This document shows positions 8,397 to 14,451 of a DNA stretch of 15,214 nucleotides, piece after piece. Position 1 is the stretch's first letter, and each line of letters opens with the position of its first letter. Position numbers and translations under genes: made by a program. The DNA is from a virus (Duplodnaviria; Heunggongvirae; Uroviricota; Caudoviricetes). The notes below the pieces were generated by a model. It saw only the letters and a list, made by a program, of their open reading frames with translations. It searched no databases and was not told the DNA's origin. The stretch lies in IMG/VR virus record IMGVR_UViG_3300001688_000696; one strand, 5' to 3'.

Positions 8397-9890
8397 GTGG
8401 ACATCTTCGTTGGACGCAAAAGAGAACTGGAAACCCTGGATGAACTCTGGCGAAGTCCGAAGGCTGAATTTCTGGTGCTATACGGCCGGCGGCGGGTAGG
8501 GAAAACCCGCTTGCTGACGCACTGGTTTCAGAACAAAAAGGAACCCGTGCGGGTAATCTATTGGGCTGCTGACCAGGACAATAAAGAGTCGCATCTCCGC
8601 CAGTTTTCAGCCGAAATTTTCAAGTGTGCTTTCCCACGAGCTTCCATCCCGGCGAGCTTTTCCTACGCCGATTGGAACGAAATATGGGAACAGCTTGGCG
8701 AGATGGCAAAAAATGAACGGCTGGTGGTGATTATTGATGAGTTTCCTTACGTGCTGGCTTCTAACCCGGTTGTCGCCAGCCAGCTACAGCGGGCATGGGA
8801 TAGGGTTTTGGAGAAAACCCACATCATGCTGTGCCTGTCCGGTTCGCATCTCGGCATGATGCAGAAGGAATTTATCGACAGCAAAGCACCGCTGTACGGC
8901 CGGGCGACTCGAATAATGAAGCTGGCACAGCTTCCATTTGGCATTACGAAGCAGTATTTCCCGAACTATTCAGCCGAGGAGCGGGTGCGCCTGTATTCGG
9001 TTTTTGGCGGCGTTCCTCATTACTGGAAACAGATTGACCAGTCTATCGCTGTGATAGAAAATGTTGACCGGCTGGTGCTGTCGGGTGGGCTGTTGCAAAA
9101 CGAAGCCATCACCATGCTGCATGAGTCTGTGAAAGAACCTCAAAACTATGTGTCTATCCTGAAGGCGATTGCCACCGGGAACAGGACGCCAAAGGAAATC
9201 GAATCCCATACAGGCATCCGGGTGCAGCACCTTACGCAGTACCTTAGCAATCTCAATGGCCTCGGCTTCGTGACGCGCCGGGTGCCGGTGACAGGTACGG
9301 CGACCTCCCGGCTGGGGCGCTATGCGATTACCGACCCGTTTTTGCGGTTTTACTTCCGCTTTGTGGCTTCACGACTGTCACAAATCGAGTTAGGGCAGAC
9401 GTTGCAGGTCTCCGAAGAACTGCGCAGGCATTGGGTAGATTTCATCGGTACGCATACATGGGAAGAACTTAGTCAGGAATGGTTGATTCGTGCCAGCAAC
9501 CAATCTGCCATCCCAGTTTTCCCGGACGAAATCGGTGGCACGTGGACAAATGATGCGCAGGTGGATGTGGCTGGCATCAATTACATGACGAAAGAAATCG
9601 TGCTAGGGGAGTGCAAGTGGACGCTGCAACGCGAAAAAGCCAATGTACTGGAAAGTCTCGTGGAAGGGAAAACCGCTCGTGTTCTGCCAAAACAAGGCAC
9701 TTGGAAAGTCTTTTATCTCGGTTTTTCTAAAGAGGGCTGGAACGAGAACGCTCAGGCTTATGCCGAGCGGCTAAACGCTGAAGTCCAGAAAAAGAACGGC
9801 GGGCGGTTTAGTGAGTTCCCGTGGAAAATTGTAGGGATGCGCCTGCTGTCATTGGCTGACGTGGATAGGGATTTGGCACTCTGGTCGTGA
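8397..9890 (+). CDS. Archaeal-type ATPase (ATPase_2/STAND-like) with wHTH, DUF234 and a PD-(D/E)XK-like C-terminus
   Basis: Walker A GRRRVGKT (aa 30-37), Walker B VIIDEFPY, LCLSGS sensor, YAITDPFLRFYFRFV (DUF234-like), VDVAG...LGECKW. GTG start after AGGAAGGAG. Confidence 0.88.
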   Translation: MDIFVGRKRELETLDELWRSPKAEFLVLYGRRRVGKTRLLTHWFQNKKEPVRVIYWAADQDNKESHLRQFSAEIFKCAFPRASIPASFSYADWNEIWEQLGEMAKNERLVVIIDEFPYVLASNPVVASQLQRAWDRVLEKTHIMLCLSGSHLGMMQKEFIDSKAPLYGRATRIMKLAQLPFGITKQYFPNYSAEERVRLYSVFGGVPHYWKQIDQSIAVIENVDRLVLSGGLLQNEAITMLHESVKEPQNYVSILKAIATGNRTPKEIESHTGIRVQHLTQYLSNLNGLGFVTRRVPVTGTATSRLGRYAITDPFLRFYFRFVASRLSQIELGQTLQVSEELRRHWVDFIGTHTWEELSQEWLIRASNQSAIPVFPDEIGGTWTNDAQVDVAGINYMTKEIVLGECKWTLQREKANVLESLVEGKTARVLPKQGTWKVFYLGFSKEGWNENAQAYAERLNAEVQKKNGGRFSEFPWKIVGMRLLSLADVDRDLALWS

Positions 9891-9950
9891 GCGATTGCAA
9901 AAATGCAGGAATTTGTCCCGACGAATTTTCAAAAAAGTGGCTTTGGCCTA

Positions 9951-9986
9951 TTGACAAATTATTCCAATAGTGATATAATATTTATA
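9951..9986 (+). promoter_or_regulatory. sigma70-type promoter of the tRNA operon
   Basis: Perfect TTGACA-N17-TATAAT followed by ATTTATA. Confidence 0.85.
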
Positions 9987-10018
9987 CTAAACGAAACTGC
10001 GAACGAGGATTTGTAACG

Positions 10019-10111
10019 ATGACGACCAGAACCACTACCATGACCAAAACGACAAAGCGAATGATAAAACATTCGTCTGCCGTTACGCGTCTTGGGGTTC
10101 TGGCAATGTAA
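10019..10111 (+). CDS. Attenuator leader peptide (30 aa, MTTRTTTMTKTTKRMIKHSSAVTRLGVLAM)
   Basis: GAGGA RBS at 10005-10009. Eight Thr in the first 12 codons. Lies between the promoter and a terminator that precedes the tRNA array. Below the ORF-track size cutoff. Confidence 0.75.
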   Translation: MTTRTTTMTKTTKRMIKHSSAVTRLGVLAM

Positions 10112-10154
10112 TCTAATCCAACCAACTAGCAAATTCCCGAAACCGTATCGGCAG
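10077..10154 (+). promoter_or_regulatory. Antiterminator helix
   Basis: CTGCCGTTACG (10077-10087) pairs 10/11 with CGTATCGGCAG (10144-10154), which includes most of the terminator's left arm. Confidence 0.65.
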
Positions 10155-10186
10155 CTCCCCTGAACTCCGATACGGTTTTTCTTTTC
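10140..10186 (+). terminator. Attenuator intrinsic terminator
   Basis: AAACCGTATCGG/CCGATACGGTTT 12-bp stem, then TTCTTTTC, located between the promoter and the first tRNA. Confidence 0.85.
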
Positions 10187-10217
10187 TGCACCTTAATAAC
10201 CGAATATGCCACCCCAC

Positions 10218-10289
10218 GCCGGTATAGTTCAACCAGCAGAACGGCTGATTCGTAATCAGCAGGTGAGGGTGCAAGTCCCTCTATCGGCT
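10218..10289 (+). tRNA. tRNA-Thr(CGT)
   Basis: Acceptor GCCGGTA/TATCGGC; anticodon arm GCTGA-TTCGTAA-TCAGC; T-arm GAGGG-TGCAAGT-CCCTC (non-canonical loop); no CCA. Confidence 0.85.
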
Positions 10290-10291
10290 TT

Positions 10292-10368
10292 GGCTGTGGC
10301 ACAAAATGCTGATGGAAAATGCCGTGCGGCATTGGCATGGCAATCCGTATCCAACATTCTCCGCAGCT
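10292..10368 (+). ncRNA. Unidentified structured RNA or degenerate tRNA
   Basis: tRNA-sized spacer closed by GGCTGTGG/CCGCAGCT with an internal AATGCC-GTGC-GGCATT hairpin; no T-loop or anticodon arm recognisable. Confidence 0.3.
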
Positions 10369-10389
10369 TGCGTGTTACAGCTTATCTCC

Positions 10390-10462
10390 GGGCGGTTAGC
10401 TCAATTGGTAGAGCAGCGGACTTTTAATCCGAAGGCTGAGGATTCGAGTTCCTCACCGCCCA
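10390..10462 (+). tRNA. tRNA-Lys(TTT)
   Basis: GGGCGGT/ACCGCCC acceptor; loop CTTTTAA; GTTCGAG-like T-loop. Confidence 0.93.
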
Positions 10463-10468
10463 CCTTAT

Positions 10469-10541
10469 CCCGCCATAGCTCAATTGGTAGAGCGACGGAC
10501 TCTTAATCCGGAGGCTTCAGGTTCAAGTCCTGATGGCGGGA
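10469..10541 (+). tRNA. tRNA-Lys(CTT)
   Basis: CCCGCCA/TGGCGGG acceptor; loop CTCTTAA; GGTTCAAGTCC. Confidence 0.93.
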
Positions 10542-10552
10542 CTCCCCAACTT

Positions 10553-10623
10553 GGGTGGGTAGTCTAAAGGTAAAACAGCGGTTTCATAAGCCGCATTTGT
10601 GAGTTCGAGCCTCACCCCACCTA
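10553..10623 (+). tRNA. tRNA-Met(CAT), probably elongator
   Basis: GGGTGGG/CCCACCT acceptor; GCGGT-TTCATAA-GCCGC; GTGAG-TTCGAGC-CTCAC. Lacks the C1:A72 mismatch and triple G-C anticodon stem of fMet. Confidence 0.8.
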
Positions 10624-10634
10624 CTATTTCTTGT

Positions 10635-10706
10635 GCCTCTGTAGGTTAGCAGGAAAACCGCTTTCGTGGTAGGAAAGAATCGTGGGTTCGAGTCCCACCG
10701 GAGGCT
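10635..10706 (+). tRNA. tRNA-Thr(GGT)
   Basis: GCCTCTG/CGGAGGC acceptor; CTTTC-GTGGTAG-GAAAG; GTGGG-TTCGAGT-CCCAC. Confidence 0.85.
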
Positions 10707-10712
10707 CTGCAT

Positions 10713-10785
10713 GGATGCGTAGCTCAGTGGTTAGAGCGAGCGGCTCATAACCGTCTGGTCGGTGGTTCGAGTCCACCCGCATCCA
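10713..10785 (+). tRNA. tRNA with CAT anticodon, probably Ile2 (lysidine, reads AUA)
   Basis: GGATGCG/CGCATCC acceptor. The AGCTCAGTGGTTAGAGC...CGGCTCATAACCGTC.GGTCG body resembles bacterial tRNA-Ile2 as I recall it; Met identity is not excluded. Confidence 0.85.
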
Positions 10786-10789
10786 CAAT

Positions 10790-10900
10790 GCTGACACAGC
10801 AGGCAGAAATGCTTAAATGTTTGTTTCGTGCAGGATGTGCGCAGTGGGGCTGGTGTGGGTGTCAGCCGCCCGATTGCGGGTTCGACCCCCGCCCCACACG
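10790..10900 (+). ncRNA. Unidentified RNA with a tRNA-like T-arm and acceptor-like helix
   Basis: GCGGG-TTCGACC-CCCGC T-arm; GTGTGGG(10853)/CCCACAC(10893) helix; GCTGACAC(10790)/GTGTCAGC(10859) helix; AGGCA-GAAA-TGCTT hairpin. No normal D or anticodon arm. Confidence 0.45.
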
Positions 10901-10905
10901 AATAT

Positions 10906-10977
10906 GCCGCTGTAGTTTAATCAGCAGAACGCTCGGCTTGTACCCGAGGGGTGCGGATGCAAGTTCCGCCAGCGGCT
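10906..10977 (+). tRNA. tRNA-Thr(TGT)
   Basis: GCCGCTG/CAGCGGC acceptor; CTCGG-CTTGTAC-CCGAG; GCGGA-TGCAAGT-TCCGC (non-canonical loop). Confidence 0.85.
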
Positions 10978-10982
10978 CTTTT

Positions 10983-11054
10983 GCCCCTATATTTTAATGG
11001 ATAGAAAAACGGTCTTCTAAACCGGGAGTCCTCGTTCGAATCGAGGTGGGGGCA
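10983..11054 (+). tRNA. tRNA-Arg(TCT)
   Basis: GCCCCTA/TGGGGGC acceptor; loop CTTCTAA; CCTCG-TTCGAAT-CGAGG. Confidence 0.88.
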
Positions 11055-11120
11055 CCTTCTTCCAATCCTTTTGCCGAAACGAATTGCACTTAGCAATCAC
11101 AGGTCGCAGCAAAAGGAAAA

Positions 11121-11273
11121 ATGGAAGAAAATTTGCGAGAGGAGGCAATTCGCGAATACCTGCGAGAAAACTTGCGGGTGTCAGCGTCGTTAGACGCCGG
11201 TAGGGAATCAGAAAGCAGTCTCTACCTGTACGTCAATGTCTCCGTTAAGTTGGAAGACGAGGTCATTTTTTGA
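11121..11273 (+). CDS. Small hypothetical protein (50 aa) inside the tRNA array
   Basis: AAAAGGA RBS; MEENLREEAIREYLRENLRVSASLDAGRESESSLYLYVNVSVKLEDEVIF*; fills a gap between tRNAs. Not in the ORF track. Confidence 0.6.
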   Translation: MEENLREEAIREYLRENLRVSASLDAGRESESSLYLYVNVSVKLEDEVIF

Positions 11274-11348
11274 CACAACGGATTACATCAGTGTCTAAAA
11301 AACTGTCCGGCGAGTACCTCGGCTTACCGGACAGCCGTCCAACCTTTT

Positions 11349-11423
11349 GCCCCCATAGTTTAATGGATAAAACGGCTGGCTTCGAACCAGCGAATCCGGG
11401 TTCGACTCCTGGTGGGGGTGCCA
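11349..11423 (+). tRNA. tRNA-Arg(TCG)
   Basis: GCCCCCA/TGGGGGT acceptor; GCTGG-CTTCGAA-CCAGC; the only tRNA here with an encoded CCA. Confidence 0.92.
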
Positions 11424-11439
11424 TATTCGGTTATGATTT

Positions 11440-11512
11440 GCTCTGGTCGTCTAAATGGATAAGACGCCTTTCTCCTAAAAAGGAAATCCGGGTTCAAGTC
11501 CCGGCCGGAGCT
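11440..11512 (+). tRNA. tRNA-Arg(CCT)
   Basis: GCTCTGG/CCGGAGC acceptor; CCTTT-CTCCTAA-AAAGG; CCGGG-TTCAAGT-CCCGG. Confidence 0.9.
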
Positions 11513-12327: not shown

Positions 12328-14451
12328 ATGAATTACGCTAACAATAATGAGATTAACGCCGTACTGCTGGAACGCAAGTGCAAGCTGATTGTTTTTGCTG
12401 AAAACCAGAGCGCGGACAACGCGCGCTACGTCATTGCCCTGATGCGAAACATCGAGAGCCTCGGTTTCACGTTTTCGCAATCTCTGTTCGACGCACTGCG
12501 CTACCAGCCAGTGCGTGAAATAACGTCATATTACGAATTCATTCTCCCCATCTTAAGGCGGATGGTGGGCGCTAATGTCGCTCACAAACCGTTTTATCTG
12601 AATTTTCCACGCCAGGTCGCTAAAATGAGCGACTTAGAGTGGATTCTTAACGCCCTGTTCCACTATTGGACGCTGGGCGAATGGAAGCCCGATTACGTCA
12701 AGGAATCCCGTTTTCCATTAATGGACGGGAAGCCGCAGGTGCGGGTGATTGACCTCGGCACGGTCGAGGAGTTTAACGCCCTGTTCGCCAACATGATGGC
12801 AGCCAGCGGTTCGCTGTCGGAAAACGACCGCAAATTGCTGGTCTGGTACATCAAAAATTCCAACCCAGATACGCTGGCGGCTTACCTGCCGGCCTCGATT
12901 CCTTCAAAGGAAACACTGGCGGTGGTCGCCGCCACGATTCTGGCGAATCACAAGTCGCACGCCGACTTGTTGAAGAGGTATTTTAAGACGGCGACGGACG
13001 TTCTCCGTTTGGTCGTCTCGATGTCGGGCGGCGATATTTCACTGGCGGAAAATACTCACTTCCGCAACTTCACCCGCGCCGAGCGCCGCTTCCTGTTGGG
13101 TCTGCTGGAAACCGACACGCATCTTGCGGAAAACATGGCGATGCACGCGGGTCTCTGGATTCGCCTGGGCGAAAAGCTGCATCCGGGCGAATATGCCAAT
13201 ATGTACCCTCGTGCATATGAGGCTTTCAGCAAGATTCGCAACGGCAAGGTACAGACCTTCAACAGCCGGGTGACTGCCGCTTGGGAAAGCGGCGACGTGG
13301 AAGGCACGCTGAACCTGTTGAAGGGGCGCGGCGGCGAGCTGGTACGCAGACTGGATTCCATGCTGCGTTCAGCGCCGGGCTATCATGCGGAAATCCTGTC
13401 CGCATTCGAGACGGTTTCCGACAGCGTGGCTACGCCGGTTCTGCTTCAAACGTTGGCGCACTTCGAACATCGCAACGAAGAACGCCAGTATCGCGCCTTC
13501 TTCCCGAAGGGGAATCTGGCGAAGGCCTACGTGGTTGAAAACAACCTGCCGCCGATGCGGGACGACATTCGGCTTGCGGCTGTTTCGGCACTCCGCAGGA
13601 CGCTGCTGCGCCGGTTTGCTGGCAAGCCTGCTCTGGGGAAGGTGTACATCGCCCCGGAACTGGCTGGCGTTCTGGTGCCGCTGGCACAGCGTTCTGCAAG
13701 CAATGCGCTGAAGTCCTTTGCTCGCGGCAGCCGCTTCGCTATCGGCGAAGCGGCAAAGGTCGTGCGTGCCTTCATCCACTGGCGCAATCCAGACCCAGAC
13801 AAACTGACCGATGTTGACCTGTCGGTCATGCTATACGACGAGAACTGGCAGTTCCGCGAACAGGTGTCGTATACGAACATCCGTTCACGCGAGTATCCGG
13901 TGTATCACAGCGGCGATGTTCGAAACGCGCCGGAAGGTGCAAGCGAATTCATTGACCTGGATGTAGACGCTCTACGGGAAGCAGGAGTGCGCTATGCAAT
14001 TTTCTCCGTGCATTCCTATTCCGAGCAGCCATTCAATGTAATCCCGGAATGCTTTTTCGGCTGGATGGAGCGGGAATTCCCGCAGTCTGGCGAGATTTAC
14101 GAACCGAACACGGTCGTAAACAAGTCTGACCTGACAGCTAATACGCGCATCGCTGTTCCTGTCGTCCTTGACCTCTTTGAACGCCAGTGTATCTGGACAG
14201 ACCTGGCTTTGAAGAAATGGCCGGGGTGGTACAACAACATCCATGCCAATGGCGAAAATCTACTACGGATGGCGGTTGGTATCATGGATACGCCGCGTCC
14301 AAACCTATACGACCTGTTTTTGCTGCACGTGGAAGCACGTGGAGGCGAACTCGTTGAAAACCGGGAAAATGCCGAGCTGGCCATCGCTTTGGATGGCGAG
14401 GCTGACATCACCCCGTTCGATACAGAGGTCATTCTGTTGGAATATCTGTAA
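12328..14451 (+). CDS. TerD-family protein with a long helical (TROVE/Ro-like) N-terminal region, 707 aa
   Basis: C-terminal DVDLSVMLYD...VSY...YHSGDVRNAPEGASEFIDLD is TerD-like. The N-terminal KTATDVLRL, RAERRFLL, WIRLGEKLHPGEY and GELVRRLDSML motifs match, from memory, the SCO0854/MXAN_6230-related family, here without the RING finger. AAGGGG RBS. The TROVE relationship is tentative. Confidence 0.7.
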   Translation: MNYANNNEINAVLLERKCKLIVFAENQSADNARYVIALMRNIESLGFTFSQSLFDALRYQPVREITSYYEFILPILRRMVGANVAHKPFYLNFPRQVAKMSDLEWILNALFHYWTLGEWKPDYVKESRFPLMDGKPQVRVIDLGTVEEFNALFANMMAASGSLSENDRKLLVWYIKNSNPDTLAAYLPASIPSKETLAVVAATILANHKSHADLLKRYFKTATDVLRLVVSMSGGDISLAENTHFRNFTRAERRFLLGLLETDTHLAENMAMHAGLWIRLGEKLHPGEYANMYPRAYEAFSKIRNGKVQTFNSRVTAAWESGDVEGTLNLLKGRGGELVRRLDSMLRSAPGYHAEILSAFETVSDSVATPVLLQTLAHFEHRNEERQYRAFFPKGNLAKAYVVENNLPPMRDDIRLAAVSALRRTLLRRFAGKPALGKVYIAPELAGVLVPLAQRSASNALKSFARGSRFAIGEAAKVVRAFIHWRNPDPDKLTDVDLSVMLYDENWQFREQVSYTNIRSREYPVYHSGDVRNAPEGASEFIDLDVDALREAGVRYAIFSVHSYSEQPFNVIPECFFGWMEREFPQSGEIYEPNTVVNKSDLTANTRIAVPVVLDLFERQCIWTDLALKKWPGWYNNIHANGENLLRMAVGIMDTPRPNLYDLFLLHVEARGGELVENRENAELAIALDGEADITPFDTEVILLEYL

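Follow-up and report, generated by a model that had tools for sequence, protein, structure and literature searches.

A codon-matched leader peptide as a candidate attenuator of a ten-gene tRNA operon in a large mobile element

Leader-peptide attenuation is a textbook form of control for amino-acid operons and for a few aminoacyl-tRNA synthetase genes, and we know of no case in which it is established as a control of tRNA genes. In the threonine (thr) operon of Escherichia coli, the leader gene thrL is a short open reading frame (ORF) dense in threonine codons, with isoleucine codons as well, and its transcript can form the alternative helices 1:2, 2:3 and 3:4, together with an intrinsic terminator. 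The tRNA arrays of mobile elements such as T5, mycobacteriophages and giant phages are thought to meet codon demand or to replace host tRNAs destroyed by defence nucleases, and phage arrays are usually regarded as simply expressed. Here we analysed a stretch of 15,214 nucleotides (hereafter the window, at its full length) recorded in IMG/VR as the Caudoviricetes sequence IMGVR_UViG_3300001688_000696, in which a short leader ORF and a terminator precede ten tRNA genes. We conclude, with a probability of about three in four, that this leader is a ribosome-mediated (leader-peptide) transcription attenuator controlling the ten-gene tRNA operon of a large mobile element.

The locus shares with the thr attenuator a threonine-dense leader, alternative helices, a terminator and the logic by which stalling at control codons would lead to read-through. 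It differs in that no sequence or covariance-model match links the two, in that tRNAs rather than biosynthetic enzymes are controlled, and in that five amino acids and specific rare codons are covered. Several amino acids are also monitored through mixed control codons by the ilvGMEDA and ilvBN leaders (isoleucine, leucine, valine); there the mixture reflects the products of a shared pathway, whereas here it mirrors the downstream anticodons, down to the synonymous choice. The pheM leader of pheST, which encodes phenylalanyl-tRNA synthetase, likewise attenuates a component of the translation machinery that is sensed through the decoding of its own codons. It responds to a single amino acid and targets a synthetase, whereas in our case the decoders themselves would be regulated, in a direct feedback loop. 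T-box riboswitches also choose between terminator and antiterminator to report the state of particular tRNAs, but they bind uncharged tRNA directly and need no translation, and neither a T-box motif nor a match to the T-box model of Rfam was found in the leader. Searches with the Rfam leader families (Thr_leader, Trp_leader, His_leader and others) gave no match at the gathering score or at E values up to 10. By these comparisons, the leader is an analogue, not a homologue, of the Rfam leader families. With the other tRNA arrays of mobile elements the locus has in common a cluster of tRNA genes on one strand, but T5 shows no codon-matched leader in the scan applied here. An earlier note on this DNA, written by a model from the sequence and a list of its ORFs, had stated that no multi-codon leader mirroring a tRNA array was described. 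Our literature search agrees: no report was found on leader peptides or attenuation in connection with tRNA arrays or phage tRNA genes, in a body of literature in which subscription journals were thinly covered and an older report is possible.

On the plus strand, the end of an ATPase_2/DUF234 gene (8397-9890) is followed by a promoter, a ribosome-binding site, a 30-codon ORF, an intrinsic terminator and the ten tRNA genes. The arrangement proposed in the note (promoter, 30-residue ORF, terminator, ten tRNAs) was thus recovered in the same order, with all parts located at 9951-11512 (Table 1). The promoter matches the sigma-70 consensus at 12 of 12 positions and would start transcription at about 9986. 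No second promoter-like site was found on the plus strand between 9500 and 12000, so the array must be transcribed through the terminator, which lies 38 nt before the first tRNA gene (starting at 10218) and was missed by a simple scanner because its loop is long. ARAGORN and Rfam searches place the ten tRNA genes on one strand within 1.3 kb (10218-11512), with the anticodons CGT, GGT and TGT for threonine, TTT and CTT for lysine, TCT, TCG and CCT for arginine, and CAT twice. This is the same set of ten that had been read from the sequence before.

The codons of the leader follow this set closely. Codons 2-17 encode T-T-R-T-T-T-M-T-K-T-T-K-R-M-I-K, and every one of them is cognate to a tRNA of the array, since only ACN, AAR, ATG, AGA, CGA and ATA are used. 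The list of leader codons in the note proved exact, with codons 2-17 all falling within a set of roughly 12 codons read by the array. Beyond this run, array-cognate codons are confined to two (ACG and ATG) among codons 18-30, as had also been noted. Nine of the ten tRNAs have a cognate codon in the run, the exception being tRNA-Arg (CCT), whose codon AGG is missing, and the AAY, AGY and ATY codons, which belong to the ANN families and have no tRNA in the array, are absent from it; both statements of the note were borne out. About 19% of the triplets in the window belong to the array-cognate set. The cognate run is 17 codons long (18 if the ACG preceding the ATG is counted), for which the expected count in the window is 1e-8, and in a six-frame reading of about 90 kb of the element the next one reaches only 7 codons. 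Among synonymous codons, the leader prefers AGA, CGA and ATA, which are rare and have tRNAs in the array. Across 55 long ORFs belonging to the element, AGA and CGA account for 7% and 8% of arginine codons and ATA for 11% of isoleucine codons. Given the peptide, the probability of picking these three rare codons is about 0.005-0.03 (hand arithmetic from the usage table). Under the harshest null for the leader, in which its own position-specific base composition is kept, p is about 0.03 (hand calculation).

The leader transcript can fold into three hairpins, namely a 1:2 hairpin (10019-10111, -30.7 kcal/mol) that pairs the control codons with the 3' half of the ORF, a 2:3 hairpin (10070-10158, -25.2 kcal/mol) in which 10077-10097 pairs with 10135-10154, and the 3:4 terminator hairpin (10139-10179, -20.9 kcal/mol). 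When region 2 was shuffled with its dinucleotides preserved, the observed energy was reached in 6 of 2000 shuffles for 2:3, in 3 of 2000 for 1:2 and in none of 2000 for both, and only 0.6% of the other 42-mers of the window pair equally well with region 3. Co-transcriptional folding was modelled on RNA cut just before region 4, with pairing barred under the ribosome footprint. With the A site at codons 1 to 14 or 15, these folds contain 18-19 pairs of the 2:3 helix; with no ribosome, or with the A site at most of the later codons including the stop, they contain none and region 2 pairs with region 1. A partial 2:3 helix of 10-12 pairs returns with the A site at codons 29-30. The models predict a choice between mutually exclusive helices that depends on ribosome position, which is the logic of the trp and thr attenuators. 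In silico, the locus combines a promoter and a short ORF with a ribosome-binding site and ATG, a cluster of control codons, a terminator ahead of the first gene, and an antiterminator and anti-antiterminator set by ribosome position. The view that the locus works by attenuation of the thrL/trpL/pheM type, put forward in the note, is supported by this anatomy, by the exclusive helices and by the ribosome-position folds.

These features suggest the following sequence of events. RNA polymerase would start at the consensus promoter and a ribosome would load onto the 30-codon leader. If the Thr, Lys, Met, Arg (AGA, CGA) and Ile (ATA) codons are decoded fast, the ribosome would exit the control run; region 1 would then re-pair with region 2, or the ribosome would cover part of region 2, so that regions 3 and 4 form the terminator and transcription halts before the first tRNA. 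If any control codon is slow, the ribosome would stall within codons 2 to about 15 and occupy region 1, region 2 would pair with region 3 and bury the 5' arm of the terminator, and the polymerase would continue into the array. Since the control codons are read by the same tRNAs that the operon yields, this would constitute negative feedback, topping up decoding capacity for this set of codons, and the array tRNAs would probably be made only when their codons are read slowly. Candidate causes of such tRNA scarcity are the demand of the element's own genes, host anticodon nucleases, hypomodification and amino-acid starvation. The sensor of this element may cover the ANN-codon (t6A-class) set together with CGA.

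The note had proposed that, if the leader is a sensor, leaders of other arrays should co-vary with their anticodons. We surveyed gaps upstream of tRNA arrays by a background-corrected score, expressed as E, for the longest unbroken series of codons that the tRNAs of the following array read. Among 45 gap/array pairs, the present window gives E = 5e-10; the best of the 44 others (from crAss001, two IMG/VR contigs, KVP40 and Atu_ph07) belongs to Atu_ph07 with E = 7e-4. In 60 more gaps, from XacN1, T5, phiCbK, phage G and Bxz1, the best is that of phage G with E = 6e-4. With about 105 gaps scored, the chance expectation for a pair of hits with E no higher than 7e-4 is about 0.07, and the terminators and other features inspected in Atu_ph07 and phage G were not used in picking them. 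In Agrobacterium phage Atu_ph07, the leader is an annotated hypothetical coding sequence of 42 codons (AUZ95228.1; MF403008, 339118-339246, minus strand, within the examined stretch 332000-339500) with a good ribosome-binding site. Codons 21-31 encode R-A-E-A-A-M-F-W-Y-P-I, which comprises precisely the nine amino acids carried by the nine downstream tRNAs (Ala, Arg, Phe, Pro, Ile, Tyr, Trp, Met, Glu), a match reproduced in none of 2,000,000 simulated windows. A canonical terminator follows this coding sequence, together with a competing helix, which would be masked by a ribosome that has reached the ORF's end. In Bacillus phage G (JN638751, about 58381-58583; L062:282-484 in our numbering), a strong ribosome-binding site precedes a 44-codon ORF in which C, D, F, Y, E, T and S are abundant; the ORF is followed at once by a textbook terminator and then by Cys-Asp-Phe-Tyr-Glu-Thr-Ser tRNAs. 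Caulobacter phage phiCbK (JX100813, 47300-52700) carries two units of short ORF, terminator and matching tRNA block (L061:2241-2492 and L061:4042-4331), one with an S/L/A/P/K-rich leader before Pro-Pro-Lys-Lys-Leu-Leu-Leu-Ala-Ser-Ser and the other with a Q/F/V/I-rich leader before Phe-Val-Ile-Ile-Val-Gln-Gln-Ile-Gly. In this small survey the expected co-variation is therefore seen, the leaders of Atu_ph07, G and phiCbK following their own, different amino-acid sets. Leader-gated arrays are apparently a recurrent type of control in large phages. That codon-matched leader attenuators are a widespread, undescribed, on-demand control of tRNA arrays in large phages and other mobile elements is a tentative proposal, which we hold at somewhat under even odds. 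Under such control, transcription of an array would await a signal from ribosomes that precisely the codons of that array are being read slowly, for instance when host defence nucleases or host shut-off deplete those tRNAs.

Among the other phages surveyed, PTm1 had no tRNA match whatsoever. In crAss001 (MH675552; L030:4195-4278), tRNA-Phe and tRNA-Leu are preceded, at a distance of 24 nt, by an ORF of 27 codons with many F, S and L residues in its C-terminal half, which is not significant by the run statistic.

Seven strain copies of the leader and array, from anaerobic-digester assemblies, are 99.0-99.9% identical. In the region compared, their 14 substitution sites all lie 3' of the terminator, one in the spacer ahead of the tRNA genes and the other 13 in the array. 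Within 9986-10185 the sole differences are two deletions (10009-10012 and 10123-10129), both found in copies L009 and L011. In the first, 4 nt are lost between the Shine-Dalgarno sequence and the ATG, which leaves a spacing of 5 nt; in the second, 7 nt are lost from the spacer that forms the loop of the antiterminator. Neither length is divisible by three, and both deletions leave the ORF and the three helices intact. In folding, the deletion variant retains the ribosome-dependent switch. The strain variation is weakly consistent with constraint on the leader. In the array of one copy (L005), five substitutions fall in the T arm of tRNA-Arg (TCT), at 11028-11039, and the gene is no longer called by ARAGORN.

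Contigs assembled from three metatranscriptome runs cross the leader, the terminator and the first tRNAs (9534-10693, 10010-10474 and 10009-10761), and another RNA-library contig, 8422-10122, runs in from the upstream ATPase gene. Read-through molecules probably exist. Contig starts at 10009/10010 and one end at 10122, with adapter sequence alongside, were considered as RNA ends and rejected; these borders coincide exactly with those of the strain deletions and are therefore read as breaks in the assembly graph.

Several points weigh against an attenuator at this locus. Translation of the ORF and regulated read-through are inferred, and their support is computational throughout. The minimum-energy fold of the full leader always has the terminator, whatever the position of the ribosome; as the terminator is thus preferred at equilibrium in the complete RNA, the switch must be kinetic, as in trp. 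When the ribosome sits at the stop codon, it shields just the 3' third of region 2 and leaves the core of that region bare, so that termination relies on region 1 re-pairing behind the ribosome, and in the deletion variant a ribosome at this position gives partial 2:3 pairing. In folds without a ribosome, the terminator arm is also contacted by a weak helix (-13.7 kcal/mol) that joins the 5' untranslated region to region 3. The strain copies are too alike to yield covariation, and the RNA-library contigs may include DNA carry-over and give neither levels nor ends. In a matrix of leaders against arrays, the leader's own array scores highest for four of the five leaders, a result that is partly circular because the survey units were chosen by codon match. 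Finally, a codon-matched leader was not found, whether by the run statistic or on inspection, in five of the eight cultured phages surveyed (crAss001, KVP40, T5, Bxz1 and XacN1) or in either of the uncultured IMG/VR contigs; the best E among these negatives was 0.06 in XacN1, 0.16 in T5 and 0.23 in Bxz1. The lack of a comparable leader in these five phages also indicates that the feature is not a by-product of tRNA arrays as such.

Other explanations of the locus were weighed as well. The terminator might have a fixed leakiness that gives constant low transcription of the array, the ORF and its codons being fortuitous or due to a local A/C-rich composition. The constant presence of the terminator in the full-leader fold would fit this, as would the RNA-library contigs that cross it in samples under no particular stress. 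Leakiness would leave to chance, however, a 17-codon run whose expected count is 1e-8 and which is unmatched in 90 kb, the fit of the rare synonymous codons to the array, the pairing of region 2 with regions 1 and 3 far better than in shuffles (jointly 0 of 2000), and the recurrence of the leader/array match with other amino-acid sets in unrelated phages. We regard a merely leaky terminator as improbable.

Equally, the promoter, short ORF and terminator could belong to a stand-alone small gene, for a 30-residue peptide or a small RNA, that lies beside an array transcribed from elsewhere. Promoter, short ORF and terminator are also the anatomy of a small-protein or small-RNA gene, and the contig 8422-10122 shows transcription entering from the ATPase gene. 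However, a transcript arriving from upstream would have to pass the same terminator, and from there to the last tRNA gene no promoter-like site is present; no homologue of the peptide turned up in the phage collection, nor any Rfam match, and the composition of the peptide mirrors the array. This makes an independent small gene very unlikely. We give just as little credit to an RNA switch that needs no translation, in which a protein bound to the leader RNA, or a tRNA bound in the manner of a T-box, would decide between 2:3 and 3:4. The alternative helices exist whatever selects between them, but such a switch would leave unexplained both the in-frame cognate run that begins at an ATG with a Shine-Dalgarno sequence and the sparing of the frame by both natural deletions, and neither the T-box nor any other Rfam model matched even at E = 10. 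Leader-peptide attenuation of the tRNA operon remains the reading that we favour. If it is true, mobile elements gauge the decoding capacity of the cell codon by codon and repair it by feedback. This would bear on why phages carry given sets of tRNAs on how they cope with tRNA-targeting defences, and on the design of compact, programmable, codon-specific sensors. The cultured phages with the same layout (Bacillus phage G, phiCbK and Atu_ph07) make the idea directly testable.

Table 1. Positions of the promoter, leader, RNA regions and tRNA genes within the 15,214-nt window
Feature	Position	Strand	Basis or remark
Sigma-70-type promoter	9951-9979	+	-35 TTGACA 9951-9956, 17-nt spacer, extended -10 TG-TATAAT 9974-9979
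Shine-Dalgarno GAGGA	10005-10009	+	9 nt upstream of ATG; read from sequence
Leader ORF, 30 codons + TAA	10019-10111	+	ORF listing, codon reading
Control run, codons 2-17 (region 1, 5' arm of 1:2 helix)	10022-10069	+	Codon match, folding
Region 2	10070-10109	+	Pairs with region 1, or via 10077-10097 with region 3
Region 3	10135-10154	+	Pairs with 10077-10097 as antiterminator; includes entire 5' arm of terminator
Intrinsic terminator	10139-10185	+	13-bp stem 10139-10151/10167-10179, -20.9 kcal/mol, U tract 10176-10185
tRNA-Thr (CGT)	10218-10289	+	tRNA searches
tRNA-Lys (TTT)	10390-10464	+	tRNA searches
tRNA-Lys (CTT)	10469-10542	+	tRNA searches
tRNA, anticodon CAT, probably Met	10553-10624	+	G1-U72 pair, without initiator-type GGG/CCC anticodon stem
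tRNA-Thr (GGT)	10635-10707	+	tRNA searches
tRNA, anticodon CAT, probably tRNA-Ile2 (lysidine type, reads ATA)	10713-10786	+	Similarity
tRNA-Thr (TGT)	10906-10978	+	tRNA searches
tRNA-Arg (TCT)	10983-11056	+	tRNA searches
tRNA-Arg (TCG)	11349-11423	+	tRNA searches
tRNA-Arg (CCT)	11440-11512	+	Sole array tRNA whose Watson-Crick codon is absent from the leader run

Copies of the element with at least 99% identity occur in many anaerobic-digester (biogas) assemblies, as contigs of about 112.6 kb; three independent contigs measure 112.6-112.7 kb. Short-read contigs all break in a gene with (PTRT)n tandem repeats (L013:18552-19301), 16.6 kb to the left of the window, and no full-length version of the (PTRT)n protein is on record. 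The element is probably larger than these contigs, and a simple circular model of 112.6 kb is not supported. No further tRNAs were found in about 97 kb of the 112.6-kb contigs. The genes of the element are mostly orphans, accompanied by methyltransferases, ArdC-N, TraX and HicB, and of ten of its proteins scanned against PHROG nine gave no hit, the sole hit of the tenth being to a family of unknown function. The element may therefore be of a plasmid-like kind and not a phage. Elsewhere it encodes a Cas12f1-like TNB domain (TnpB-like), an ArdC-N antirestriction protein, TraX, a ClpB-like AAA protein and several N6/N4 methyltransferases (loci including L031:13076-13741, L029:8606-9649 and L028:5845-6492).

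Searches for a diverged relative of the locus by neighbour proteins, by leader pattern and by tblastn found none. The 145-residue and 497-residue neighbour proteins have no relative in viral contigs, and the former finds only itself in the protein collection. A degenerate leader pattern had no match in viral or genome contigs and, in metagenome contigs, hit just this element and one chance match without tRNAs; tblastn of the leader peptide against the phage collection returned no homologue. Downstream of the array, the window encodes a 707-residue TerD-family protein (12328-14451) whose closest homologues are 45-55% identical and chromosomal. They come from uncultured digester bacteria, including an Anaerolineae (Brevefilum) genome, and from Bacillota, which by sequence similarity gives a weak hint as to the host. 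These homologues are many, their chromosomal settings lack arrays, and no relative of the tRNA locus was found through them.

Within the array, the two CAT tRNAs deserve separate mention. The one at 10713-10786 had been named Ile2 in the note; the name is plausible on similarity, at 89% identity across 56 nt with an E. coli tRNA of anticodon CAT, listed in RefSeq as tRNA-Ile. The other, at 10553-10624, has no match among the tRNAs of E. coli. In the spacers at 10290-10389 (100 nt) and 10787-10905 (119 nt) no tRNA was detected; the second had earlier been flagged as tRNA-like. A 50-codon ORF (11121-11335) lies between tRNA-Arg (TCT) and the pair tRNA-Arg (TCG) and tRNA-Arg (CCT), and four of its five arginine codons (CGA twice, CGG and AGG) are read by the two tRNAs downstream. 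A GC-rich hairpin comes next, at about 11303-11334, and has no U tract beside it. This ORF could be a second, weaker sensor, or merely a small gene.

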